Shown: piece by piece, positions 1,767 through 52,518 of the stretch
Position numbering within the stretch: the first letter of the stretch is position 1
Layout of the letters: the number at the start of each line of letters is the position of its first letter
Virus record (IMG/VR): IMGVR_UViG_3300011989_000007
Coordinates: 1-64,000 of that record
DNA length: 64,000 nucleotides
Strand: one strand, 5' to 3'
Origin: a virus
Lineage: Duplodnaviria > Caudoviricetes
Translations under genes and position numbers: made by a program
The notes under the pieces: model-generated
The model's database searches: none
Seen by the model: the letters and a program-made list of their open reading frames with translations, nothing else
What the model was told of the DNA's origin: nothing

Positions 1767-1988
1767 ATGAATACAAAGATAAATAAGTTAAAGAAATCGT
1801 TGAAAGATATGCATCCAAAAGTAGTTAAAGTCACAAAAAAAAATTACACACTTGACAATGGTGATGTTTACGAACATACCTTTGATATAGATGAAAATAT
1901 AACAGTAGATGAATTCCAAACACTGTTAGATAATTCCAAGAACGTTATTGTTGAAACCCTAAATAAAATAGAAAATGATGAAGTATAA
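1767..1988 (+). CDS. Small accessory ORF inside the IS607
   Basis: 73 aa; TAATG stop/start overlap with tnpA. Confidence 0.7.
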   Translation: MNTKINKLKKSLKDMHPKVVKVTKKNYTLDNGDVYEHTFDIDENITVDEFQTLLDNSKNVIVETLNKIENDEV

Positions 1989-2608
1989 TGGGAACATTAT
2001 TGACTATAAAGGACGCTGCCTCTTATCTCAATGTCTCTCAAGACACTTTAAGAAAATGGGATAAGGCAGACAAGTTAAAACCTTTAAAAACAGTAGGAGG
2101 ACATCGTAGATATGATTCTGACGCTCTTGATGAATTTATTGGCTTAACGCGAAAAGATGAAGAAGAAACACCTATTGTTTGTGCAACCTATGCAAGAGTT
2201 TCATCTAATGAACAGAAACAAAAAGGTGATTTGGATAGGCAATCGCAAAGACTATCCGAATATTGTGCCAAGAAAGGAATGCTTGTCACACATATTATAA
2301 AAGATGTTGGAAGTGGTTTGAATGATAATAGAAGCGGTTTTGTTAAACTGACTGATTTAATCATTGCACACAAGGTAAACAAACTGATAATTGAACACAA
2401 GGATAGACTTACACGATTCCAATTTAAATTCATCAAGAAGATGTTTGAGAGCTATGGTTGTGAAGTCATAGTAATCAATGGTATGGATGTTTCCGATACA
2501 GAAGAACTTGCTGCTGATATGATAAGCCTTCTCGCAAGTTTCAGTGGTAAATTCTATGGAAAACGAAGTGCTGAACGAAGAAGAAATAAGAAAACAGATA
2601 ATATATAA
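1988..2608 (+). CDS. tnpA: IS607 transposase (MerR-like HTH + serine recombinase)
   Basis: N-terminal AASYLNVSQDTLRKWD...GGHRRY; catalytic YARVSS; DVGSGLN; EHKDRLTRF. Confidence 0.95.
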   Translation: MGTLLTIKDAASYLNVSQDTLRKWDKADKLKPLKTVGGHRRYDSDALDEFIGLTRKDEEETPIVCATYARVSSNEQKQKGDLDRQSQRLSEYCAKKGMLVTHIIKDVGSGLNDNRSGFVKLTDLIIAHKVNKLIIEHKDRLTRFQFKFIKKMFESYGCEVIVINGMDVSDTEELAADMISLLASFSGKFYGKRSAERRRNKKTDNI

Positions 2609-2614
2609 GATTAA

Positions 2615-3757
2615 ATGTTAAGAGCAATAAAGATAAGATTATACCCGAATAGAACGCAAGAGCAAACGCTTAATAAGGTGCTTGGATGCTATCGTTTTGT
2701 CTATAATCAAATGCTTGCTCTGAAACAAAATGCTTATAAAGCAGATAAGACAAACTTAAAAGTAACTGACTTATCAAAGTGGTTTCACGGAATATTACTG
2801 AAGGATGAACAGTATACTTGGTTGAAAGAACAAAATACAAAAGTAATGAAACAAGCAATCAGGCAAATGGATGATGCTTATCAAAAGTTTTTCAAACAAC
2901 ACAATGGGTTTCCAAAGTTCAAATCAAAGAAGGATAAACAGTCAGCATTGTTTCCATATGAAGCCATTTCAAAACGTAATACTTTTGAAACAAGGCATAT
3001 CAGTTTAACAACACCGTTAAAGAACATTAAATTCCGTTGCTCAGATTTATATTTCAGTAGACTACAGAAGTATAATAGGAATATAAGAAGTGCTACCTTA
3101 TCGAAAACCAAGAGTGGTAATTTCTTCTTATCCATTCTTATTGAAATGGAAGATATTGAATTAGAGAAGTTTGAACACACAAATGAACAAGTTGGTATTG
3201 ACCTTGGAGTTAAAGATTTTGTCATTACTTCCGATGGAGAAGTATTTGAGAACAAACATTTCTTCAAAAAGGAAGAAAAACAAATAAAGAAACTCCAAAG
3301 ACAATTATCAAAGAAAGTTAAAGGTTCTAATAATAGGAAAAAAGCACAAATTCGTATTGCAAAGTTATTTGAACGAATTACTAACAAGAAAAATGCTTAC
3401 ATCCATTATGTATCAAATGAATTATTATCTTACTTTGATACTATCTTTATGGAAGACTTGAATGTGAAAGGTATGTTAAGAAATCATCATCTTGCAAAAG
3501 CAATCCAAGAGGTTGGATTTTATAAGTTCAAGGAAACACTGGTTAATAAAGCACTTGTGAATGGTAAACAAATTGTGTTTGTTGATAGGTTTTATCCGTC
3601 AAGTAAAACTTGTTCGGTTTGTGGTTATAAGAAACGAGATTTAAGGCTAAGTGACAGAGAATGGGTTTGCCCTAAATGTGGAACAAAGCATGATAGAGAT
3701 ATAAACGCTGCGATGAACATATTGTTGGAAGGTCAACGAATGCTCACAGCAGAATGA
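2615..3757 (+). CDS. tnpB: RNA-guided endonuclease TnpB (IS607)
   Basis: RuvC motifs GIDLG, FMEDL and DRDINAA intact; zinc finger CSVCG...CPKCG. Confidence 0.95.
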   Translation: MLRAIKIRLYPNRTQEQTLNKVLGCYRFVYNQMLALKQNAYKADKTNLKVTDLSKWFHGILLKDEQYTWLKEQNTKVMKQAIRQMDDAYQKFFKQHNGFPKFKSKKDKQSALFPYEAISKRNTFETRHISLTTPLKNIKFRCSDLYFSRLQKYNRNIRSATLSKTKSGNFFLSILIEMEDIELEKFEHTNEQVGIDLGVKDFVITSDGEVFENKHFFKKEEKQIKKLQRQLSKKVKGSNNRKKAQIRIAKLFERITNKKNAYIHYVSNELLSYFDTIFMEDLNVKGMLRNHHLAKAIQEVGFYKFKETLVNKALVNGKQIVFVDRFYPSSKTCSVCGYKKRDLRLSDREWVCPKCGTKHDRDINAAMNILLEGQRMLTAE

Positions 3758-11833: not shown

Positions 11834-12199
11834 ATGAATTCAAAAAAGTACGATAGAGAACTTGAACTTGAAATGAAGAAAAGTTCATTGGAAATGTATT
11901 TGAATACTCTTGATGAGATGATTAGTAAGAATAGCCCTCAGATTTCAATTGAGTTGATTCAGAATGAGATAAAGGCACTTAGAAAGGAAATTAAGGAACT
12001 TAATGAGTGTCATTATAAATCAGAAGCCTCCTATAAAGCTTTCATTTCGTATTTAAAGAATCGCAAGAAAAAGTCTAAAGAATCTAAAAGGGTAGAAAAA
12101 TCTTTGTTCGATTCGATAAAGAAGTACGAAAATGATTCTGAAGCATTGCTTAAAAATTGGAAACTACTCTTGGCAAATTCACATGAAACAAGCAATTAA
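11834..12199 (+). CDS. Hypothetical coiled-coil protein
   Basis: 121-aa ORF in an operon. Confidence 0.65.
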   Translation: MNSKKYDRELELEMKKSSLEMYLNTLDEMISKNSPQISIELIQNEIKALRKEIKELNECHYKSEASYKAFISYLKNRKKKSKESKRVEKSLFDSIKKYENDSEALLKNWKLLLANSHETSN

Positions 12200-12713
12200 G
12201 AAAAATAGGAAGAATGCTAATAAGGCAATAACCAAGAAAAGGAAGAAAATGCAAAGGGATGCTCGTGGAAAGGCCATTCGTGAACATTCAAAGTTTGGTA
12301 CAAGTAAACTTGAACAAGACTTTGCACGAGATTTCCTTGATAAAATGAAAGTTAATTACATTTGGCAGTTTGAAGCCAAAGATATTGGCCGTTTTTACGA
12401 TTTTTATTTACCTGATAGCAATATACTCATTGAGGTCGATGGAGATTATTGGCATGTTAATCCTAAAAAGTACGATGCTAATGATAGAGATTCACTAACA
12501 CCAACCCAAAAAAAAGATATGAGGGTCGATGAGCTTAAAAATAAATGGGCATTGCTACATGGAATACCAATTTATAGAATTTGGGAGGATGATATACGAC
12601 ATAAACCTGAAAAAGTACTCAAAGAACTTAAAGAAACTGTTAAAAATTATAAAAAAGAGCAGGTTTTAACGGAAAAAAAGAATAAAAGACATAATAATAA
12701 GCTAAAGAAATGA
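12183..12713 (+). CDS. DUF559/Vsr-like PD-(D/E)XK endonuclease
   Basis: YDFYLP...IEVDGDYWH...D..K...IYRIWE; start set to ATG 12183. Confidence 0.8.
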   Translation: MKQAIKKNRKNANKAITKKRKKMQRDARGKAIREHSKFGTSKLEQDFARDFLDKMKVNYIWQFEAKDIGRFYDFYLPDSNILIEVDGDYWHVNPKKYDANDRDSLTPTQKKDMRVDELKNKWALLHGIPIYRIWEDDIRHKPEKVLKELKETVKNYKKEQVLTEKKNKRHNNKLKK

Positions 12714-33003: not shown

Positions 33004-34206
33004 ATGGTTAAGCAAGCTATAAAGAAAAAGGCTTTCACACGACCTTCAATTGCTTCAATTAAGGAGGCAATGGGTCTAAATATTAAGGATGATGACTTGA
33101 CAGTATCAAGTGCTAATAAGCCAATTGAGTTTATTACACTACCTGAGGCATTTGTTAATGCAACTAAGTTGCCTGGTATTCCAAAGGGTGAGTTGTCAAT
33201 CGTATATGGTTGGTCAAACACAGGTAAGAGTACTTTGATTAACTGTATTATTGCATCTTGTCAAGCATCAGGTATTCTTCCTGTAATCTTTGATACTGAG
33301 TCACACTTTGACTTTAAGTATGCAATTGATTGCGGTATGCAAGCAACTCCAATTCATAAAGATGTAGAGGTTGAAGATGTTGATGAAGAGACTGGTGAGG
33401 TAATTGGTACACACACTGAGGATAAGATTATTGACTATGAAGGTGAATTTATGTACTTTGATGGAGAAATCCTTTGTCAGTTGTATGGAAAGAATGATTA
33501 CTCGAATGGTAAGGAGGCTAAGAAGCAGAGAAAAGTACCTGTTCTTGAGGATATAGCTTTCGCAATCAATAAGATTCTTGATTTGCAGGATGAGGGTAAA
33601 ATTCAGCAAGATATTTGTTTCTTGTGGGACTCTATTGGCTCAGTAATGTCATATAAGTCTTATGTAAGTAATGTTGGTAACAATATGTTTGATGCAGGCG
33701 CTATGCAGTCAGCATTCAATATGATTACCAATAATCGTATTCCTCTTTCAAAGAAGGTAAGCTCACCTTACACTAACACAATGTTTTGCGTGAATAAGAT
33801 TTGGCTTGATTCAATGTCCGCACCTATGGCAGCACCTTCTGTTGAGTTGAAGGGTGGTAAGTCAATGTACTTTGCAGCACACGGATTGATTATTCAGTTG
33901 GGCGGTGTCGTTAAGGCTTCTATAAAGCATCTGACTGCAACAAGCAAGGGTCGTAACTATAATTGGGGTACACTTACAAAAATTAAGGTGGTAAAGAATC
34001 AGTTGAGTACACCATATAATTTGACATATGAGGGTACAATGGTTTGTGTACACAATGGCTTGATTAGTGAAGACCAAGAAGATGCTTACAAAAAGACTTA
34101 TGTACCAAAGATTATGGCTGAACTTGAAAAGGCTGAAACTGGTAAGGAAGTTGTTGTTAAAGAAGACGATATTACTTTCTCAGAAACTGATGAGAATGAA
34201 GATTGA
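33004..34206 (+). CDS. recA: RecA/UvsX-like recombinase
   Basis: Walker A GWSNTGKST, FDTE, Walker B FLWDSIG, KGGK, KVVKN. Confidence 0.9.
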   Translation: MVKQAIKKKAFTRPSIASIKEAMGLNIKDDDLTVSSANKPIEFITLPEAFVNATKLPGIPKGELSIVYGWSNTGKSTLINCIIASCQASGILPVIFDTESHFDFKYAIDCGMQATPIHKDVEVEDVDEETGEVIGTHTEDKIIDYEGEFMYFDGEILCQLYGKNDYSNGKEAKKQRKVPVLEDIAFAINKILDLQDEGKIQQDICFLWDSIGSVMSYKSYVSNVGNNMFDAGAMQSAFNMITNNRIPLSKKVSSPYTNTMFCVNKIWLDSMSAPMAAPSVELKGGKSMYFAAHGLIIQLGGVVKASIKHLTATSKGRNYNWGTLTKIKVVKNQLSTPYNLTYEGTMVCVHNGLISEDQEDAYKKTYVPKIMAELEKAETGKEVVVKEDDITFSETDENED

Positions 34207-35453: not shown

Positions 35454-35491
35454 AAGGGATAATTATTTTGACAAATAATTGTCCTTTTTTT
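35454..35491 (+). terminator. Rho-independent terminator
   Basis: aagggataattatt...aataattgtcctttttt. Confidence 0.7.
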
Positions 35492-35539
35492 GTTTTTTAC
35501 AATAATTATTTATATATTTTAACAAATGATATAAAATAT

Positions 35540-37417
35540 ATGAATAAGCTAGAAAGATTTATAGAACGAGCAAATGCGATACATAATAACAAATATGATT
35601 ATTCAAAAGTAGACTATAAAGATTGCAACACCAAAGTTTGTATAATTTGCCCTGAGCATGGTGAATTTTGGCAAACACCAAAGCAGCATTTGAAAGGGCA
35701 TGGGTGCAAAAAATGCGCTTCAGCGTTATCAAGTAACAAAAGGTCTTCAACGAAAGAGAATTTTATTGAACGAGCCAAATTAGTACATGGTGATAAATAT
35801 GATTATAGCAAAGTTGAATATGTTAATAATTCAACACCAGTTTGCATTATATGCCCGACACATGGCGAATTTTACCAATCACCTAAATCACATCTAAATG
35901 GGTCTGGTTGTCCAAAATGTTTTGACGAAAGAAGACAACATATAAGGAAATATGATAACAAACTTTTTATTGAAAAGGCTAAATTGGTTCATGGTGACAA
36001 ATACGACTATTCGAAAGTAGATTATAAAGATAGCAATACTAAAGTTTGCATAATATGCCCAGAACATGGAGAATTTTGGCAAACACCTGCACATCATTTA
36101 AGTGGTGAAGGGTGTCCTAAATGTGCTTTATCTATAAAATCCGAAGAGCAACAAATGACCAAGGCTAGTTTTGTTGAAGCAGCCAATAAAATACATAATA
36201 ACAAGTATTCATACTATAAATTTGTTTATAATGGTGGCAAAGAAAAATCAATTATAATTTGCCCTGTGCATGGTGAATTTGAAATGACACCAAATGCGCA
36301 TTTAAGAGGTCAAGGATGCCCTATTTGTGGTATTGAAGCGACTGCTGATAAGCTAAGGGGAAATAAGGAAGATTTTATAAAAAAGGCTCAAAAAATACAT
36401 GGCGATAAGTATGATTATTCAAAAGTTAATTATGTAAATTATAAAACTAAGGTAGAAATCATTTGTAAAAAACATGGATCATTTCTAATGACGCCATGTA
36501 ACCATATTCAAAATCAAGCAGGATGTCCTAAATGTGCTCATCAGCAATCTAAGTCAGAAAAAGAAATTTATGAATATATAAAAAGTTTAAATGTTTTCTG
36601 TGAAGAAGGTGATAGAGGAATACTTAAAGGGAAAGAAATAGACGTATTTGCCCCAATATTTCGTGTTGGTATTGAATTTGATGGACTAAGATGGCATAGT
36701 GAATTATATAGAGATAAAAATTATCATTTAAATAAAACAGTTGAATGTGAAGATAAAGGCATACGATTGATACATATATTTGAAGATGAATGGCTAAATA
36801 AACGTGATATATGGGAATCAATGCTTAGAAACGTGTTTCATAAAATAACAAATAAAATTTATGCCAGAAAATGCACTGTAAAATTTGTATCTGAACGTGA
36901 TAAAAAAATATTTTTAAATGGCAATCATATACAAGGCAATGCTAATAGTTCAGTTAATTTAGGGCTATACTATAATGATGAATTAGTGTCATTAATGACT
37001 TTTGGTAAACCTAGAATAAACATGGGTGGAAAAGATAAAGATGGATATTGGGAACTTGTTAGATTTTGTAATAAATTAAATACTTCAGTTGTAGGAGGTG
37101 CAAGTAAATTATTTAAGCATTTCATTAAGGATTATAACCCAATTAACATAGTATCTTATTCTGATAAAAGATGGGCAACAGGTGGCTTATATGACAAATT
37201 AGGGTTTATACATGACCACGATTCAAAGCCAAATTATTATTATGTTATTAATAATGAAAGAAAAAATAGATTTGGATTCAGAAAAGACAAATTAATTAAA
37301 GAAGGTTTTGATAAAAACAAATCAGAGCATGAAATAATGTTAGAAAGAAAAATATATAGAATATATGACTGTGGTTGCAGGTGCCATATATGGAAAAAAG
37401 CAAAAGAGAACGAGTGA
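35540..37417 (+). CDS. Free-standing endonuclease: 5 zinc-ribbon repeats + PD-(D/E)XK domain + Hef-like/GNAT-like C-terminal domain
   Basis: 5x H..KY.Y...IIC..HG.F..TP..H..G.GCP.C; EIDVF...GIEFDGLRWH; WELVRFC...GGASKL...SYSDKRW..GGLY; start set to ATG 35540. Confidence 0.8.
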   Translation: MNKLERFIERANAIHNNKYDYSKVDYKDCNTKVCIICPEHGEFWQTPKQHLKGHGCKKCASALSSNKRSSTKENFIERAKLVHGDKYDYSKVEYVNNSTPVCIICPTHGEFYQSPKSHLNGSGCPKCFDERRQHIRKYDNKLFIEKAKLVHGDKYDYSKVDYKDSNTKVCIICPEHGEFWQTPAHHLSGEGCPKCALSIKSEEQQMTKASFVEAANKIHNNKYSYYKFVYNGGKEKSIIICPVHGEFEMTPNAHLRGQGCPICGIEATADKLRGNKEDFIKKAQKIHGDKYDYSKVNYVNYKTKVEIICKKHGSFLMTPCNHIQNQAGCPKCAHQQSKSEKEIYEYIKSLNVFCEEGDRGILKGKEIDVFAPIFRVGIEFDGLRWHSELYRDKNYHLNKTVECEDKGIRLIHIFEDEWLNKRDIWESMLRNVFHKITNKIYARKCTVKFVSERDKKIFLNGNHIQGNANSSVNLGLYYNDELVSLMTFGKPRINMGGKDKDGYWELVRFCNKLNTSVVGGASKLFKHFIKDYNPINIVSYSDKRWATGGLYDKLGFIHDHDSKPNYYYVINNERKNRFGFRKDKLIKEGFDKNKSEHEIMLERKIYRIYDCGCRCHIWKKAKENE

Positions 37418-37429
37418 AAATCGCTCTCT

Positions 37430-37465
37430 TTTTTGTTTTATTAACATTTTTTTATATATTTGTAA
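37430..37465 (+). promoter_or_regulatory. Bacteroidota-type promoter with a TTAACATTTTT box
   Basis: ttttgttttattaacatttttttatatatttg; TATATTTG at 37455-37462. Confidence 0.7.
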
Positions 37466-37523
37466 TATATGCTAAAGTGACTCAAAAAAAATAAATAAGG
37501 ATAAAAAAAATAAGTAGAAACGA

Positions 37524-37616
37524 ATGAAGCAAGTCGTAAAACGAGCAAGGAAGGAAGCGAATAACGTTGACGATGATAAATTAATCTATACGTTACTCAT
37601 TGATGGGAATTCATAA
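37524..37616 (+). pseudogene. Stranded 30-codon N-terminus of the 5'-3' exonuclease gene
   Basis: MKQVVKRARKEANNVDDDKLIYTLLIDGNS*; 20/30 identical, ungapped, to residues 1-30 of 38800..39969. Confidence 0.9.
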
Positions 37617-37679
37617 AAAATATATACTTTATTTTTAGATTTTAATAAAATACACAATATTTATATTAAAAAAAATATT

Positions 37680-38837
37680 ATGCATACAACTAAAAAGAGT
37701 ACAACTGAAGATTTCATTAAAAAAGCAAAAGAAATTCATGGTAATAAGTATGACTACTCAAAGGTAGATTATAAAAATAATTCTACCAAGGTTTGTATAA
37801 TTTGTCATGAAAAGGACAAGTTGGGCAATGAACATGGCGAATTTTGGCAAACACCTGCTAATCATTTGTCTGGGCATGGTTGCCCAAAATGTGATGGAAA
37901 GGGTTTTACTTGGGGTTATTATTTAAAATTATGTTCATTAATTCATAATAATAAATATGATTATTCGAAAGTAAATTATATTAATAACACATCTAAAATT
38001 TGTATAATTTGTCCTAAACATGGAGAGTTTTGGATGACTATTACTAATCATTTGAGGGGTCAAGGATGCCCTAAATGTGCAGGTACAAAAAAATCAAGCA
38101 CAAAAGAATTCATAGAAAAAGCAAGAAAAGTACATGGAGATAAATATGACTACAGTAAAGTTGAATATATAAGCAATAAGACTAAAGTTTGTATAATTTG
38201 CCCTGAGCATGGAGAGTTTTGGCAAACACCAAATTGTCATTTATCAGGTGATGGATGTGCAAAATGTTCAAAAAAACATAAATACACTACCGAAGAATGG
38301 ATTGAAGAAGCAAAAAAAGTGCACGGGAATAAATACGATTACTCAAAAGTTAATTATATAAATTCACAAACAAAGGTTTGTATCATATGTCCTGAACATG
38401 GCGAATTTTGGCAAAAACCTGAAGGACATTTATTAGGGCAAGGATGCCCAATATGCAGAACAAGTGTGTTGGAAGATAAATTATACGAAAAATTAAAAAG
38501 CAAATATAATATAGAAAGAAGATATAGGCCTAAATGGTTAGGTAATCAAGAAATTGATTTGTTTTTACCTGATTATAATATTGGCATTGAATGCCAAGGT
38601 ATTCAACATTTTGAACCAATAGATTTTTTTGGCGGTGTTGACAAATTTAATTATATTATTAATTTAGATAAAAAGAAAAATAAATTGTGCAAAAAAGAAA
38701 ATGTGGATTTAATTTATTTTACAGAGTGCAAAGTGAATAAAGAAAAATCTTATTTAGGAAAATTGTTTTTTAAAATAAAAGATGTATACAATTATATAAA
38801 TGAAACAAGTAATAAAAAAACGAATCAAAACGGCTAA
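37680..38837 (+). CDS. Free-standing endonuclease: 4 zinc-ribbon repeats + PD-(D/E)XK (DUF559-like) domain
   Basis: 4x KYDYSKV.Y...KVCIIC..HGEFW repeats; EIDLFLPDYNIGIECQGIQHF. Confidence 0.85.
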   Translation: MHTTKKSTTEDFIKKAKEIHGNKYDYSKVDYKNNSTKVCIICHEKDKLGNEHGEFWQTPANHLSGHGCPKCDGKGFTWGYYLKLCSLIHNNKYDYSKVNYINNTSKICIICPKHGEFWMTITNHLRGQGCPKCAGTKKSSTKEFIEKARKVHGDKYDYSKVEYISNKTKVCIICPEHGEFWQTPNCHLSGDGCAKCSKKHKYTTEEWIEEAKKVHGNKYDYSKVNYINSQTKVCIICPEHGEFWQKPEGHLLGQGCPICRTSVLEDKLYEKLKSKYNIERRYRPKWLGNQEIDLFLPDYNIGIECQGIQHFEPIDFFGGVDKFNYIINLDKKKNKLCKKENVDLIYFTECKVNKEKSYLGKLFFKIKDVYNYINETSNKKTNQNG

Positions 38838-39969
38838 TAATATTTCAGATGAAAAATTGATAATCACTTTATTGGTTGATGGCAACAGCCTATTGAAGAG
38901 TTCCCTTGTAAATAAAGAAATGAACTCCAAAGGTGAGGAATATGGTGCAGTTTGGAATATGCTAAGACGAATGGGCGAACTTTTGCTTAAAAAAGACTTT
39001 AAATATTGCATTGTTGCGTGGGATGGTGATGGATCAGGCGTATTGAGATACAAATATTATCCTTTATATAAGGCTAATCGTGATAAGCATTATGAATTGC
39101 ACAATATTAAGACTGATTATGACAGGAAAATAGACGAATTTTGCAAAAGAACCATCGCTTATTATAGGCAAAATGGCAAAAAGCAAGCAAAAAGGTCTGA
39201 AACCGAGGATGAATCATTTCAAAGGCAGAGAGCAATCATACAAGAGATACTTGACAATCTTTTTGTCAGACAGTTTATGTATGATAATGTGGAAGGAGAT
39301 GATTTAATTTCATATTATTGTCATAATAAGAAGGAAAACGAAAGAATTGTCATTGTTTCTGAGGATAGAGATATAACCCAGTTGATTAATGATGAAATTT
39401 GTATTTGGATTCCGTCAATGCACAAATTTATAACCCCAAAAAACGATGTTGAAGAGCTAGGTTACACTCACGAGAACGTTGTTTTGAAGAAAATCATTTG
39501 TGGTGATGCTTCAGATAACATTTATGGTATTAAAGGTATTGCCGAGAAGGGATTAATTAAGCAATTCCCTGATTTGAAGGAGAAAAAATGCACTTTGAAT
39601 GAAATTTTAGAGCGTTCAAAGGCAATTCAGGAGGAAAGACTTAAAGAAAAGAAGAAACCACTTAAAGCATTGGAAAATCTTTTGAATAGAGTTACTGATG
39701 GGTGTCAGGGAAAGGATATTTTCGAGATTAATGAGAAAATCATTGATTTGTCGAAGCCTTTACTTACCGAAGAGGCTGAAAAATCACTGAAAGAAGAAAC
39801 TTATGCACCAATAGACCCAGATGGTAGGGATATTAAGAACATTTATCAGATTATTAATGATAATGACATGAAAAGACTTCAAGATGAGTCCACTTTTGGC
39901 AATATTTTCGGACCATTCGAAAGGATTTGTAAAATGGAGAAAAAATTCTTCAAAGAAAGTGTCAAGTAA
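38800..39969 (+). CDS. 5'-3' exonuclease / flap endonuclease (PolI N-terminal / T4 RNase H-like)
   Basis: LLVDGNS, VAWDG, YKANR, EGDDLI, SEDRD, GDASDNIYGIKGIAEK. Confidence 0.9.
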   Translation: MKQVIKKRIKTANNISDEKLIITLLVDGNSLLKSSLVNKEMNSKGEEYGAVWNMLRRMGELLLKKDFKYCIVAWDGDGSGVLRYKYYPLYKANRDKHYELHNIKTDYDRKIDEFCKRTIAYYRQNGKKQAKRSETEDESFQRQRAIIQEILDNLFVRQFMYDNVEGDDLISYYCHNKKENERIVIVSEDRDITQLINDEICIWIPSMHKFITPKNDVEELGYTHENVVLKKIICGDASDNIYGIKGIAEKGLIKQFPDLKEKKCTLNEILERSKAIQEERLKEKKKPLKALENLLNRVTDGCQGKDIFEINEKIIDLSKPLLTEEAEKSLKEETYAPIDPDGRDIKNIYQIINDNDMKRLQDESTFGNIFGPFERICKMEKKFFKESVK

Positions 39970-40836: not shown

Positions 40837-43371
40837 ATGACGGCACGAAATGAAAGAAAAGATTTAGGGTTCTTAGGAGAGGACTTTCAGTACAAATTGG
40901 TAAGAGAGTTTACTGACGATAAGGAACTCTTTAAGGATTTGAGTAGCGTCATTGACCAAAATATGTTCACCGACCCTAATTTGAAGACTTATGTAGGCGT
41001 AATGAAGGAATACTATGAAAAGTATGATAGTGTTCCTTCATACGATATAATTCAAGTAAAACTATTTGAGAAATCGCATTCTGACACCGAAAGAGAGTTC
41101 TATGCTGCAATAGTTGACAAAATCAAGCATACGCCTACAGATGGTTCTGAATTTATTAGGGACACTGCAACAAAATTCTTCAAGCAGCAGAACATTATTA
41201 AAACTGCAAACGAAATCTTAAAGATTGCAGGAAATGGTGATGTTTCTAATTACGACAAGTGTGTTGAATTGCTCAATGGCGCATTAAATGCAGGTACACA
41301 CAATGATTTAGGTTCAGGCGTATTTGATAATGAAGAAGAGACACTTTCAGATGATTATCGTATACCAATTCCAACGGGTATTGAAGGAATTGATGAAACG
41401 CTTGAAGGTGGTATTGGCAAGGGAGAACTTGGCGTAATCGTTGGACCAAGTTCGTTCGGTAAATCACAACCACTTGATGCTAGAATATTAACCCCAAATG
41501 GATATAAACTAATGGGAGAAATGTCTGTTGGAGATTATGTAATAGGTTCTGACGGTAAACCTCATGTTGTAAGTGGTATATATCCTCAAGGCAAAAGACC
41601 AATATATAAAGTTTCATTTTCAAATGGTACTTCGTGTGAATGTGATATAGAACATTTATGGAATGTAAATTCTCTCTATCAAAGATGCGGTAAAAAATAT
41701 GTCGCAGGTATTTCCAAAAACAGAGACGATAAAATATATGCTCCTGATCATTCATTTAAAACTTTATCCTTAAGAGAAATATTAGAAAAAGGACTAACTA
41801 AAAAAGGTTCTTCAAAATATAACTTCAAGGTTCCTGTGGTTAAACCGATTGAATTTGCTGAGCAAGAAACTAAGTTTGACCCATATTTAGCAGGCTATTA
41901 TATTGGTGATGGTTGTTTTAAAAGAGTTGGAATAACAGTTGGAAAAAACGATAAAGAATGTGTTGAATCAATTTTGAAACCAATTTTAAATGAAGATTTG
42001 CATATTTTTTATAGAGAAAAAAGAAACATTTATCAATTTGATATTATAGGACAAACAAAAAAGAATTTAAAAGAATGCTTTTCTACAGAATGCAAATCAG
42101 ATGGTAAATTTATACCTAAAGAATATTTGTTCAATTCCATCGAAAAAAGAATTGCTATTTTACAGGGTATAATGGATTCTGATGGTCACGCAAACAAAAA
42201 TGGTTCTTGTGAATTCTGTAGTAAGAGTAAACAACTCGCATTAGATGTACAATTTCTTGTTCGTTCCCTTGGAGGTTTTGCAAGTTTAAAAGAATCAAGT
42301 TCTTCATATTTTTCTAAAAAATACAATAAGAGAATAGATTGTGGTAAACGTTATAGGGTGACTATAAGTATGTGCGACAACTCTATTCCATTATTTAGAA
42401 TGGAAAGGAAACAAACAAGAGTTAAATATCGCACACGTGGGGCAGATGCTTTGTTTATGACAAACGCTGAATATGTTGGAGAAAAAGAAGCACAGTGTAT
42501 AATGGTAGATTCTGATGAACATTTATATGTTACTGAAGATTTTATTGTAACGCATAACACGTCTTTGACCACTGCTATTGCAGGATTTGCTTCAACATAT
42601 CCTTGTGAGCAGAACAATTATGAGGGTTTCAAGGTACTTCAGATTGTATTCGAGGATAGAGTAAAGCAGATTCAGAGAAAGCATTTTGGTCGTATCACTG
42701 GTATTGAATCTAAGGATTTGGGTAAGCCTGAATATATTAATACCGTTCGAGAGCAACTCGACCATTATGAAGGTAAGGAAATGATGGAGAAAAACTTACG
42801 TATTCTTCGTCTTCCAAGTGGAGAAAAGACTGCTTGGGATATTGAACGAATTATTAAGAGGTTTATTAACAATGGTTTTAGACCTGACCTTGTAATCGTT
42901 GACTATTTTGAATGTTTGGCACATAGGAACGAAGGCACTCTGTCAGAGTGGGAACAAGAAGGTAAGACTATGCGAAAGTTCGAGGCTATGGCAGGTACAC
43001 TTAATATGGCATTTTGGATTCCTCTTCAAGGAACTAAAGACTCTGTTAATATGGAGCTTGTTACTATGGATAAAGCAGGTGGCTCTTTCAAGAAGATTCA
43101 GATTGCACACATAGTAATGTCAATAGCACGTTCAAACGAGGATATTGCTGAAAATAAGGCAACTATCGCAATCTTAAAGAATAGAGCAGGTAAAGCTGGT
43201 AAGGTATTTAACAATGTTGAGTTCAACAATGGTACTTGCCGAATCAGTACTGCAAATTGTGATGATGGTCTTGATTCAATGTTCGCTTTCGATAAGAAGC
43301 AACAAAAGGATAGAGATAATCTCGCATCAGAAATTTTTAAGAAGTATAAAGCCGAACATGGAGCAAAATAA
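40837..43371 (+). CDS. dnaB: Replicative DnaB/gp41-like helicase containing an intein
   Basis: IPTG...LEGGIGKGELGVIVGPSSFGK|T; Walker B VIVDY; ILKNR. Confidence 0.9.
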   Translation: MTARNERKDLGFLGEDFQYKLVREFTDDKELFKDLSSVIDQNMFTDPNLKTYVGVMKEYYEKYDSVPSYDIIQVKLFEKSHSDTEREFYAAIVDKIKHTPTDGSEFIRDTATKFFKQQNIIKTANEILKIAGNGDVSNYDKCVELLNGALNAGTHNDLGSGVFDNEEETLSDDYRIPIPTGIEGIDETLEGGIGKGELGVIVGPSSFGKSQPLDARILTPNGYKLMGEMSVGDYVIGSDGKPHVVSGIYPQGKRPIYKVSFSNGTSCECDIEHLWNVNSLYQRCGKKYVAGISKNRDDKIYAPDHSFKTLSLREILEKGLTKKGSSKYNFKVPVVKPIEFAEQETKFDPYLAGYYIGDGCFKRVGITVGKNDKECVESILKPILNEDLHIFYREKRNIYQFDIIGQTKKNLKECFSTECKSDGKFIPKEYLFNSIEKRIAILQGIMDSDGHANKNGSCEFCSKSKQLALDVQFLVRSLGGFASLKESSSSYFSKKYNKRIDCGKRYRVTISMCDNSIPLFRMERKQTRVKYRTRGADALFMTNAEYVGEKEAQCIMVDSDEHLYVTEDFIVTHNTSLTTAIAGFASTYPCEQNNYEGFKVLQIVFEDRVKQIQRKHFGRITGIESKDLGKPEYINTVREQLDHYEGKEMMEKNLRILRLPSGEKTAWDIERIIKRFINNGFRPDLVIVDYFECLAHRNEGTLSEWEQEGKTMRKFEAMAGTLNMAFWIPLQGTKDSVNMELVTMDKAGGSFKKIQIAHIVMSIARSNEDIAENKATIAILKNRAGKAGKVFNNVEFNNGTCRISTANCDDGLDSMFAFDKKQQKDRDNLASEIFKKYKAEHGAK
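41464..42558 (+). mobile_element. Intein (365 aa) with LAGLIDADG endonuclease, inserted in the helicase P-loop
   Basis: Starts SQPLDARILTP right after GK; ends IVTHN before Thr; internal AGYYIGDG and LQGIMDSDG. Confidence 0.92.
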
Positions 43372-51185: not shown

Positions 51186-52518
51186 CAAGAAAACCCACAA
51201 GTTGAATACTTGTTGGATGAATTGGCTTTTTAATAGATATATTTTAAACTATATAACTAAATATTTAATTATTATATAAAAATTATATATATTATATATA
51301 AAATAATTTTTATGAGGTATAAGGCTTATAAGTACAGAATCTATCCAAACAAGGAACAGCAAGAACTGATAAACAAACATATCGGTTGCTGTCGCTATGT
51401 CTATAACCTTTGCCTCGAAAAGAAAATTAATGCCTATAAGACTTCTAAGAAAAGTCTTTCATGCTTTGACCTTATTAAACTACTTCCATCTCTAAAGAAA
51501 GAGAAAGAAACGTCATTCCTTAAAGAAGTGAACTCTCTATCACTACAAGCTGCAATTCGTAACCTTGATAGTGCATATCAGAGGTTCTTTAAGGAAAAGA
51601 AAGGATTTCCAAAGTTCAAATCAAAACGGAATACAAGGCAATCCTTTCAGATTGTGCAGAAAACTTATGTAGACTTTGAAGAAAAGAAAGTTTACATACC
51701 GAAGTTTAAAGAAGGCATTAAATGTAGATTTCACAGATTCTTTGATGGTAAGGTGAAAACCTCTACCATATCAAGAACCTCAACAGATAGGTATTACATC
51801 TCCATATTGGTGCAATTGAACGATGATAATCCCAATAAGAAGCCCATTGACGAGAACAAAGCAGTGGGTATTGACTTGGGTATCAAGACCTTTGCCACAT
51901 TGTCCAATGGAGAAGAAATACCTAATCCAAAGAATTTAAAGAATGCAATAGCCAAACTGAAAAGACTTCAGAGAAGGTTATCCAAAAAGGCTAAAGGCTC
52001 AAACAATCGTGAAAGAGCAAGACGTGTGCTTGCTTGTCAATATGAAAGAGTAACCAACAGAAGAAATGACTTTCTTGAAAAGGTCACTCATCAGTTGGTT
52101 ACAAATTATGATACAATTTGCCTTGAAACCTTGTCCCCAAGTAATATGATGAAAAATCATCATCTTGCGCAAGCTTTGTCTGACATAGCCATAGGTAGGT
52201 TCAATGAACTCATTGAACAAAAAGCCGAATGGTATGGAGTGAATATCTTGCGCATTGGTAGATTTGAGCCAAGTAGCAAGATGTGTTCTTGTGGCTATAT
52301 CTATAGGGATTTGAAGCTATCACAAAGAGTATGGACTTGTCCGAGTTGTGGTAGAAGAAATCAGCGAGACTTGCTTGCTGCAAATAACATAAAGGCCTTT
52401 GCATTCAATAAAAAAATAATACCGCAGGAACTGCGGAAATTCACGCTTGTGGAGATATGAACCCCGTTAGGGATTCAGCCCAAGAAGCCCATAAGTCTTT
52501 AGTTTGTGGGCAGTTCAC
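51186..52518 (+). mobile_element. Non-autonomous IS200/IS605 (IS1341-like) element, tnpB only
   Basis: Left end caagaaaacccacaagt...acttgttgg; right end gcccataagtctttagtttgtgggcagttcac ending TCAC; no Y1 tnpA. Confidence 0.8.
51312..52460 (+). CDS. tnpB: RNA-guided endonuclease TnpB
   Basis: KAYKYRIYP; RuvC GIDLG, CLETL and QRDLLAA; zinc finger. Confidence 0.95.
   Translation: MRYKAYKYRIYPNKEQQELINKHIGCCRYVYNLCLEKKINAYKTSKKSLSCFDLIKLLPSLKKEKETSFLKEVNSLSLQAAIRNLDSAYQRFFKEKKGFPKFKSKRNTRQSFQIVQKTYVDFEEKKVYIPKFKEGIKCRFHRFFDGKVKTSTISRTSTDRYYISILVQLNDDNPNKKPIDENKAVGIDLGIKTFATLSNGEEIPNPKNLKNAIAKLKRLQRRLSKKAKGSNNRERARRVLACQYERVTNRRNDFLEKVTHQLVTNYDTICLETLSPSNMMKNHHLAQALSDIAIGRFNELIEQKAEWYGVNILRIGRFEPSSKMCSCGYIYRDLKLSQRVWTCPSCGRRNQRDLLAANNIKAFAFNKKIIPQELRKFTLVEI

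Follow-up and report, generated by a model that had tools for sequence, protein, structure and literature searches.

The 5′ end of a flap-exonuclease gene in a rumen jumbo phage has very probably been invaded by a selfish endonuclease cassette that brings along a replacement for the gene start it severs. The locus lies within positions 1 to 64,000 of the IMG/VR record IMGVR_UViG_3300011989_000007 (Duplodnaviria; Caudoviricetes), and this 64,000-nucleotide (nt) stretch, analyzed as a whole, is referred to as the window. According to this reading, a free-standing homing-endonuclease gene enters the coding sequence of the exonuclease, which is kept working by start replacement without splicing. 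The record represents a 107-kb piece of an uncultured jumbo phage genome (~32% complete according to CheckV), and its relatives reach sizes of up to 300-410 kb. The window stretch was contained in ~15 DNA runs from ~10 studies; the public runs holding it were mostly labeled as bovine gut. All relatives compared, designated by L numbers, are metagenome contigs. A blastn search of phage GenBank records revealed no close relative of the locus, and the matches obtained were to endonuclease repeat units only.

An earlier note on this DNA, made from the sequence alone, had described a mini-open reading frame (ORF) that stops after a DGNS motif and is followed by an endonuclease gene, which in turn overlaps a second start; every element was found in its place (Table 1). 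The TAA of the 30-codon ORF follows the DGNS codons immediately. The ORF of 385 amino acids (aa) overlaps the start of the 389-aa exonuclease ORF by 38 nt, and the two are in different reading frames. The 389-aa product matches PF02739 (E 2.8e-25) and PF01367, both 5′-3′ exonuclease families. An ungapped alignment of the mini-ORF with exonuclease residues 1-30 reproduced the 20/30 identical residues given in the note (56/90 nt), and the DGNS codons of the native and the imported copy differ, as it had also stated. The Pfam match to the nuclease fold starts at residue 24 of the exonuclease, and D27, N29 and K33 showed no variation in 17 relatives. The break point is therefore located three codons past the first conserved acidic residue of the family, which we take to be a metal ligand as in the flap nucleases of T5 and T4. 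The stub and the endonuclease ORF (37524-37680) share one frame with a single TAA between them and no further stop in the 63-nt spacer, so that translation through the stop, or a former fusion of the native start to the endonuclease, is conceivable.

Table 1. Features of the invaded exonuclease locus (window coordinates).
Feature	Position	Strand	Basis
Native promoter-like motif of the exonuclease gene	37432..37462	+	Three near-identical copies in the window; kept in empty and decayed alleles; putative promoter
Stranded native exonuclease 5′ end, 30 codons plus TAA (type U)	37524..37616	+	Matches N-termini of cassette-free alleles of the same lineage
Mobile unit: stop, spacer, endonuclease gene, imported exonuclease codons 1-35	37614..38904 (end approximate)	+	Comparison of window, L004 and L007; empty contig of run X5
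TATTTATA, probable late-type promoter element of the cassette	37658..37665	+	22 nt 5′ of the endonuclease ATG
Free-standing homing-type endonuclease gene, 385 aa	37680..38837	+	PF14311, phrog_559, AlphaFold model, fold matches
Imported (type D) first 35 exonuclease codons	38800..38904	+	ATG located within the 3′-terminal part of the endonuclease ORF
Hybrid 5′-3′ (flap) exonuclease gene composed of imported start and resident body	38800..39969	+	PF02739; open frame intact

The mobility of the unit was traced by comparing the window with L004, a relative from another metagenome with an 82% identical exonuclease. L004 shares the architecture of the window (30-codon stub ending after DGNS, same spacer, 385-aa gene, same unusual exonuclease N-terminus). 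Identity of 99% was limited to window positions 37608-38903 (11 mismatches in ~1296 nt), and outside the unit only ~60% identity was left on the left and ~80% on the right. The imported starts of the two are identical at 88/90 nt, whereas the gene bodies are only ~80% identical. L007, in turn, is the empty counterpart of L004 (collinear, 95-97.5% identical). The L004 stub equals codons 1-30 of L007 at 90/90 nt, and the downstream copy of L004 matches the L007 start at 63/90. Between the exonuclease genes of L004 and L007, 33 sites differ in nt 9-105, at 30 of which L004 carries the letter of the window; beyond nt 105 there are three differing sites (nt 163-174) and then none until nt 1175. From the collinearity, the identity of the stub and the pattern of differing sites, L004 is therefore L007 plus a unit of 1.29 kb (1291 nt, corresponding to window 37614-38904). 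In L004, the donor codons reach ~15 nt beyond the point of insertion and one more donor-like site follows at nt 163, giving the extent of co-conversion. As judged from these alignments, the unit is discrete and has moved between two lineages, and the start now in use is of foreign origin. The earlier note had placed the unit at approximately 37614-38889; its left end was retained, and its right end had to be shifted to ~38904, since the imported tract continues ~15 nt past DGNS, through LLKSS. At both L004 junctions the parental sequences share ≤15 identical nt, and a k-mer assembly chimera is therefore not credible.

Within the lineage of the window, the unit is present or absent at one and the same site, and both types of N-terminus occur in a single exonuclease cluster of ≥90% identity. 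The stub is identical to cassette-free alleles of this lineage at 80-84/90 nt and 28-29/30 residues. Since the upstream copy corresponds to the native N-termini of cassette-free relatives (26-28/29 residues), the repeat reflects homology and not chance. In the empty alleles (L016, L020-L025 and L007), the promoter and the native N-terminus with DGNS lead directly into LLKSS, and the endonuclease gene is absent; this is the empty allele that the earlier note had predicted. Relatives devoid of the endonuclease but keeping both N-termini, which it had named as an argument against itself, were not seen among the relatives examined. L016 is collinear with the window without the unit, with flanks of 94-95% identity; the body of its exonuclease gene is 96.7% identical to that of the window, and 31 of the first 76 nt differ. 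In a wider set of 80 IMG/VR exonuclease relatives, no second DGNS-type motif was seen upstream; loci whose match begins at residue 23 were considered as further duplications and turned out to have merely shorter N-termini.

The imported N-terminus was found in this lineage only together with the cassette or its remains. The cassette is intact in L011-L015. In L017-L019, window positions 37511-38669 are deleted with a junction in an A-rich run, and the last ~130 nt of the endonuclease ORF are retained together with the imported start; the exonuclease sequence of this form is on record for 58 contigs of up to 378 kb. In L026, an N6/N4 methyltransferase gene takes the place of 37477-38006, and the endonuclease is shortened to 267 aa. 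Because these decayed alleles have only the imported start, it must function alone, in agreement with the claim of the earlier note that the host gene is repaired by duplication and not by splicing. The succession of empty, invaded and decayed alleles is what a homing endonuclease gene is expected to pass through, with the swapped N-terminus as a lasting scar. In DNA run X5 (bovine gut), cassette contigs were found next to a contig of the empty allele in which 21 letters that match the L022-type empty allele link 37610 to 38908; donor and target genomes thus co-occur. An exact search of IMG/VR and JGI metagenome contigs did not return the left junction, and the junctions recurred in at least six independent assemblies plus public runs, which provides the support that the earlier note had asked for.

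The promoter that the earlier note had assumed ahead of the mini-ORF gained support from a 31-nt motif (TTTG, ~20 nt, TAnnTTTG), three copies of which are present in the window (31290, 37432 and 39972), with 0 expected by chance. Each copy precedes a replication or recombination gene, and the motif is retained in empty and decayed alleles. From this placement, the stub stands behind the promoter-like element of the exonuclease gene itself, and the native motif would drive the stub and whatever lies downstream in this allele. TAnnTTTG alone was rejected as a general promoter mark, since it is not enriched upstream of window genes (five seen, five expected); only the 31-nt motif is meaningful. 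The second motif, TATTTATA, occurs ≤60 nt upstream of gene starts in 6 of its 13 plus-strand copies versus 0.5 expected, and the genes so preceded are structural genes and both endonuclease genes. Because of this enrichment and the copy in front of the endonuclease ATG, the cassette seems to bring its own signal, which may serve as a late-type promoter.

The endonuclease, which matches Pfam PF14311 and phrog_559 by sequence, has four ~60-residue zinc-ribbon repeats (DUF723/DUF4379) ahead of its nuclease domain. Searches with the nuclease domain alone gave no Pfam match, no PDB match and no BLAST similarity to the DUF559 protein of the window. As sequence searches provided no name for it, this domain was placed by fold comparison only, using an AlphaFold model of the endonuclease built from 37 homologues (mean predicted local distance difference test score 88.6). 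Residues 260-385 of the model matched Vsr endonuclease (Z 9.1, root-mean-square deviation 2.7, 102 residues aligned), a DUF559 protein structure (Z 8.9) and the catalytic domain of I-Bth0305I (PDB 3r3p, Z 8.4), with alignment lengths of 95-102 residues; Foldseek gave a probability of 1.00 for the match of the nuclease domain to Vsr. Based on the model, the C-terminal domain is predicted to be a Vsr-like PD-(D/E)XK nuclease fold joined to a zinc-ribbon DNA-binding module. The earlier note had named a zinc-ribbon/PD-(D/E)XK endonuclease, and the first half of this assignment is borne out by sequence and the second by predicted fold. The endonuclease belongs to a very large family that numbers thousands of members. 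Among 5.8 billion proteins there is only one near-identical cluster (99% identical, nine members), and every member of it that was examined is located at this exonuclease site.

The codons at the insertion point are unusually diverse. Among empty alleles, silent diversity reaches its gene-wide maximum at codons 28-39, the top window in all three sequence sets, with 0.89 differences per codon versus a gene mean of 0.14 within the lineage and 1.06 versus 0.51 across lineages. This peak is compatible with an arms race, or with repeated conversion, at the target. The imported copy differs from the L007-type and L022-type empty alleles by ~10 silent changes in the 18 nt after the Gly codon. The last codons of the stub, AAT TCA, are unlike those of all empty alleles of its own lineage (AAC AGC or AAT AGT) and are the same as in the L007 and L002 lineages, so that the final 6-7 nt of the stub probably arrived with the cassette as left-flank conversion. 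In this point, the reading of the earlier note has to be adjusted.

A sequence of events that would account for these observations begins with co-infection, in which the enzyme would cut cassette-free alleles at or near the DGNS/LLKSS codons. The break would be repaired from the genome bearing the cassette, with the left end pairing with the stranded stub of the donor and the right end with the gene body. The entire unit would be copied in, so that the recipient's own start would end up as a dead stub downstream of the native promoter. Later, the nuclease gene would decay, being deleted or giving way to a methyltransferase gene, and the imported start would stay as a permanent scar.

Several points weigh against this account. 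We infer that the endonuclease makes the break, and at what position, as we do the way in which the first duplication arose. A short stretch of homology, ~14 identical nt at the junction, would have been available on the left side when the unit entered the L007 lineage. Neither 120 close proteins nor 80 IMG/VR loci revealed a donor lineage for the imported start; the nearest N-termini belong to proteins that are ~61-65% identical overall and share 19-21 of ~30 positions. The codons at the silent-diversity peak are rich in Ser and Leu, which permits more silent change. The L016-type empty alleles have exactly the codons of the cassette from nt 77 onward (DGNS-LLKSS). The proposal of the earlier note that recoding of DGNS makes the invaded gene immune to its own nuclease therefore gives an incomplete picture: it is consistent with the L007-type and L022-type empty alleles and fails for the L016 type, where the codons are identical. 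L016-type alleles may be endonuclease-free alleles that acquired the right-hand tract of the cassette, which could have happened by repair from the downstream copy of the donor or by cassette loss through recombination at the shared TTGATGG; alternatively, they are naive alleles of the lineage. Finally, every sequence involved is a metagenome contig.

As enzymatic cleavage is a proposed step, general phage-phage recombination may instead have moved the unit, with the endonuclease gene as a passenger or inactive at the site. The locus is indeed highly mosaic: the interval gains and loses other endonuclease genes, methyltransferase genes and an IS607-like element. Nevertheless, we regard this explanation as unlikely. 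General recombination does not readily account for a transferred tract that is bounded exactly by the endonuclease gene and ~105 nt of the target gene, with almost no flanking conversion between backgrounds that are ~20% diverged. It is further opposed by the coincidence of the site with the silent-diversity maximum of the gene and by the restriction of the exact endonuclease cluster to this one site.

A duplication of the gene start in place, followed by divergence of the copies and without horizontal origin of the second start, is suggested by the copies being direct repeats ~1.3 kb apart with 62% identity. It is nonetheless very improbable, because the upstream copy in L004 is 100% identical to its own empty allele, whereas the downstream copy is much closer to that of the window (88/90) than to the empty allele (63/90), and divergence in place cannot yield the same diverged copy in two lineages.

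Introns and inteins typically occupy conserved catalytic motifs, as does this insertion, and the common frame of stub and endonuclease ORF, with one TAA between them, might likewise point to a self-splicing intron or intein-like element at 37614-38889 that rejoins the native start and body. This, too, we consider hardly tenable. The stub is closed by a stop codon, the exonuclease ORF is not in the frame of the endonuclease ORF, and the imported start stands by itself; in L017-L019 and L026 the stub is gone and the imported start is the only one used. As the earlier note had already stated, neither a group I core nor an intein was apparent: no Rfam family was detected at E≤1 within 37300-39100, and Pfam revealed no intein or LAGLIDADG domain in the 385-aa protein. 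In two RNA libraries, the 3′ portion of the endonuclease gene is represented by contigs, one of which continues unspliced into the exonuclease gene (38606-38915), with no splice-type joint reported; this carries little weight, as DNA carry-over is possible. Positions 37428-37962 had no cover in RNA-library contigs, which carries no evidential value. That the repeat and its junctions are assembly artefacts, as the metagenomic origin of all sequences might suggest, deserves next to no credence, given that the window, L004 and L011-L013, which derive from different samples and were put together with different assemblers, have the same junctions, as do Logan contigs from several studies, and that a k-mer assembler would not be misled by the few letters common to the parental sequences at these points.

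Further members of the endonuclease family and other mobile elements are found in the window and its relatives. A larger endonuclease of the same family is encoded upstream of the exonuclease locus (35468-37417, 649-aa ORF, likely start at 35540 after TATTTATA) and has five zinc-ribbon repeats, the nuclease domain and a Mom-like C-terminal part. Its gene is variable in relatives, being absent in L005 and disrupted in L017 by an IS607-like element. An IS607-like pair is located at 1988-3757 (a 206-aa MerR/resolvase-type protein and a 380-aa TnpB-like ORF), and an element of this kind also interrupts the large endonuclease gene of L017/L018; a second TnpB-like ORF is located at 51312-52460. Two family members were considered as further end-swapping cassettes and rejected. 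The gene for the 384-aa endonuclease of L007 (L007:579-1733) is a plain intergenic insertion without duplication of a gene start; it lies between a 562-aa endonuclease gene and a gp13-like gene, overlaps the start of the latter by 14 nt and is absent in L004. The third family member (383 aa, positions 83512-84663 of the record) is likewise a plain intergenic insertion with no evident flanking duplication; its neighbors are a metallophosphatase-like gene and, on the other strand, an S-adenosylmethionine-synthetase-like gene.

Other observations concern the surrounding genes. A basic N-terminus MKQxIKK, similar to that of the exonuclease, is shared by a small DUF559 (Vsr-like) nuclease ORF (12180-12713) and a RecA-like gene (33004-34206), and this common start may be an N-terminal signal or a DNA-binding tail. 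In relatives, the stretch from the exonuclease gene to the next conserved gene harbors one or two additional genes (a 275-aa ORF and a D12-class methyltransferase), which are missing from the window; this other variable slot is located at L011:2541-4615, L016:6207-7340 and L026:6003-8077. A DnaB-like helicase gene of the window contains a LAGLIDADG intein (40837-43371, 844 aa), and L010 has an intein-free form of 475 aa.

If the cassette acts as proposed, a homing endonuclease can colonize the coding sequence of an essential phage gene at a catalytic motif, with neither intron nor intein, by carrying a replacement for the severed piece. Protein termini would then be swapped locally between phages that are ~20% diverged, and short orphan ORFs that copy the start of a neighboring gene could be explained in annotation by such cassettes. 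The locus offers a natural allele series for study, comprising empty alleles of three silent-codon types, invaded alleles in two lineages and two decayed forms, and the four-unit zinc-ribbon array with its Vsr-like nuclease may be of interest as a modular DNA-recognition scaffold. More tentatively, an endonuclease combined with a spare gene end might be a general, splice-free route by which homing endonucleases enter essential coding sequences, as yet undescribed for phages; such a route would shuffle short protein termini between diverged phages, drive an arms race of silent codons and yield cut-immune, endonuclease-free alleles of the L016 type. A full-text literature search, in which subscription journals were outside coverage, returned no phage description of an endonuclease cassette with a replacement gene end.

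The closest described system is that of the mobile ORFs (mORFs) of fungal mitochondria, of which the phage cassette is the mirror image at the 5′ end. Such mORFs make gene hybrids in atp6 of Allomyces macrogynus, in atp6, atp9, cox2 and nad3 of Glomus sp. and in atp9 of Rhizopus oryzae (PMC3630166 and references therein). They insert near the 3′ end of a gene, bring a foreign C-terminal copy and strand the native one (PMC3630166). In both systems, the end of an essential gene is invaded by a free-standing endonuclease gene that brings a foreign copy of this end, and the native duplicate is stranded nearby and matches close relatives, the inserted copy being far more diverged. The endonuclease gene is accordingly flanked by two copies of the gene end, the native one stranded and the foreign one in use, as seen here from the intact ORF and the decayed alleles. 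The mORFs replace the 3′ end and C-terminus, often by in-frame fusion, with LAGLIDADG or GIY-YIG enzymes in organelle genomes; in contrast, the phage cassette replaces the 5′ end with the start codon, keeps the ORFs separate, encodes a Vsr-like nuclease with a zinc-ribbon array and has its own promoter-like motif.

Free-standing phage endonucleases with intronless homing are represented by SegF, SegG and the Mob family of T4. Like these, the cassette has a free-standing endonuclease gene beside its target, presence/absence polymorphism in collinear genomes and localized conversion of flanking markers, and, as in intronless homing, genomes that share it resemble each other far more inside the unit (99%) than in the flanks (~60% and ~80%). 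Classical Seg/Mob genes are intergenic and are not known to duplicate part of the target gene, whereas the cassette is located inside a coding sequence and compensates for this by the imported start. Repeated zinc-finger DNA-binding modules (DUF723/CapR-like) are known from phage endonucleases (PMC10448857), and the cassette enzyme has such an array. Its catalytic fold is like those of I-Bth0305I (3r3p) and Vsr/DUF559 (Z 8.4-9.1); sequence similarity to these nucleases is not detectable, and, unlike the cassette enzyme with its four-unit zinc-ribbon array, I-Bth0305I is intron-encoded. In Aeromonas phage Aeh1, according to the accounts in the citing papers, mobE divides nrdA, and the two resulting polypeptides assemble again (Friedrich et al. 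2007, cited in PMC8351571 and PMC10448857). There too, by these accounts, a homing endonuclease gene occupies the interior of an essential phage gene that remains functional, with no intron or intein involved; both halves are kept in Aeh1, whereas the cassette discards one piece and replaces it.

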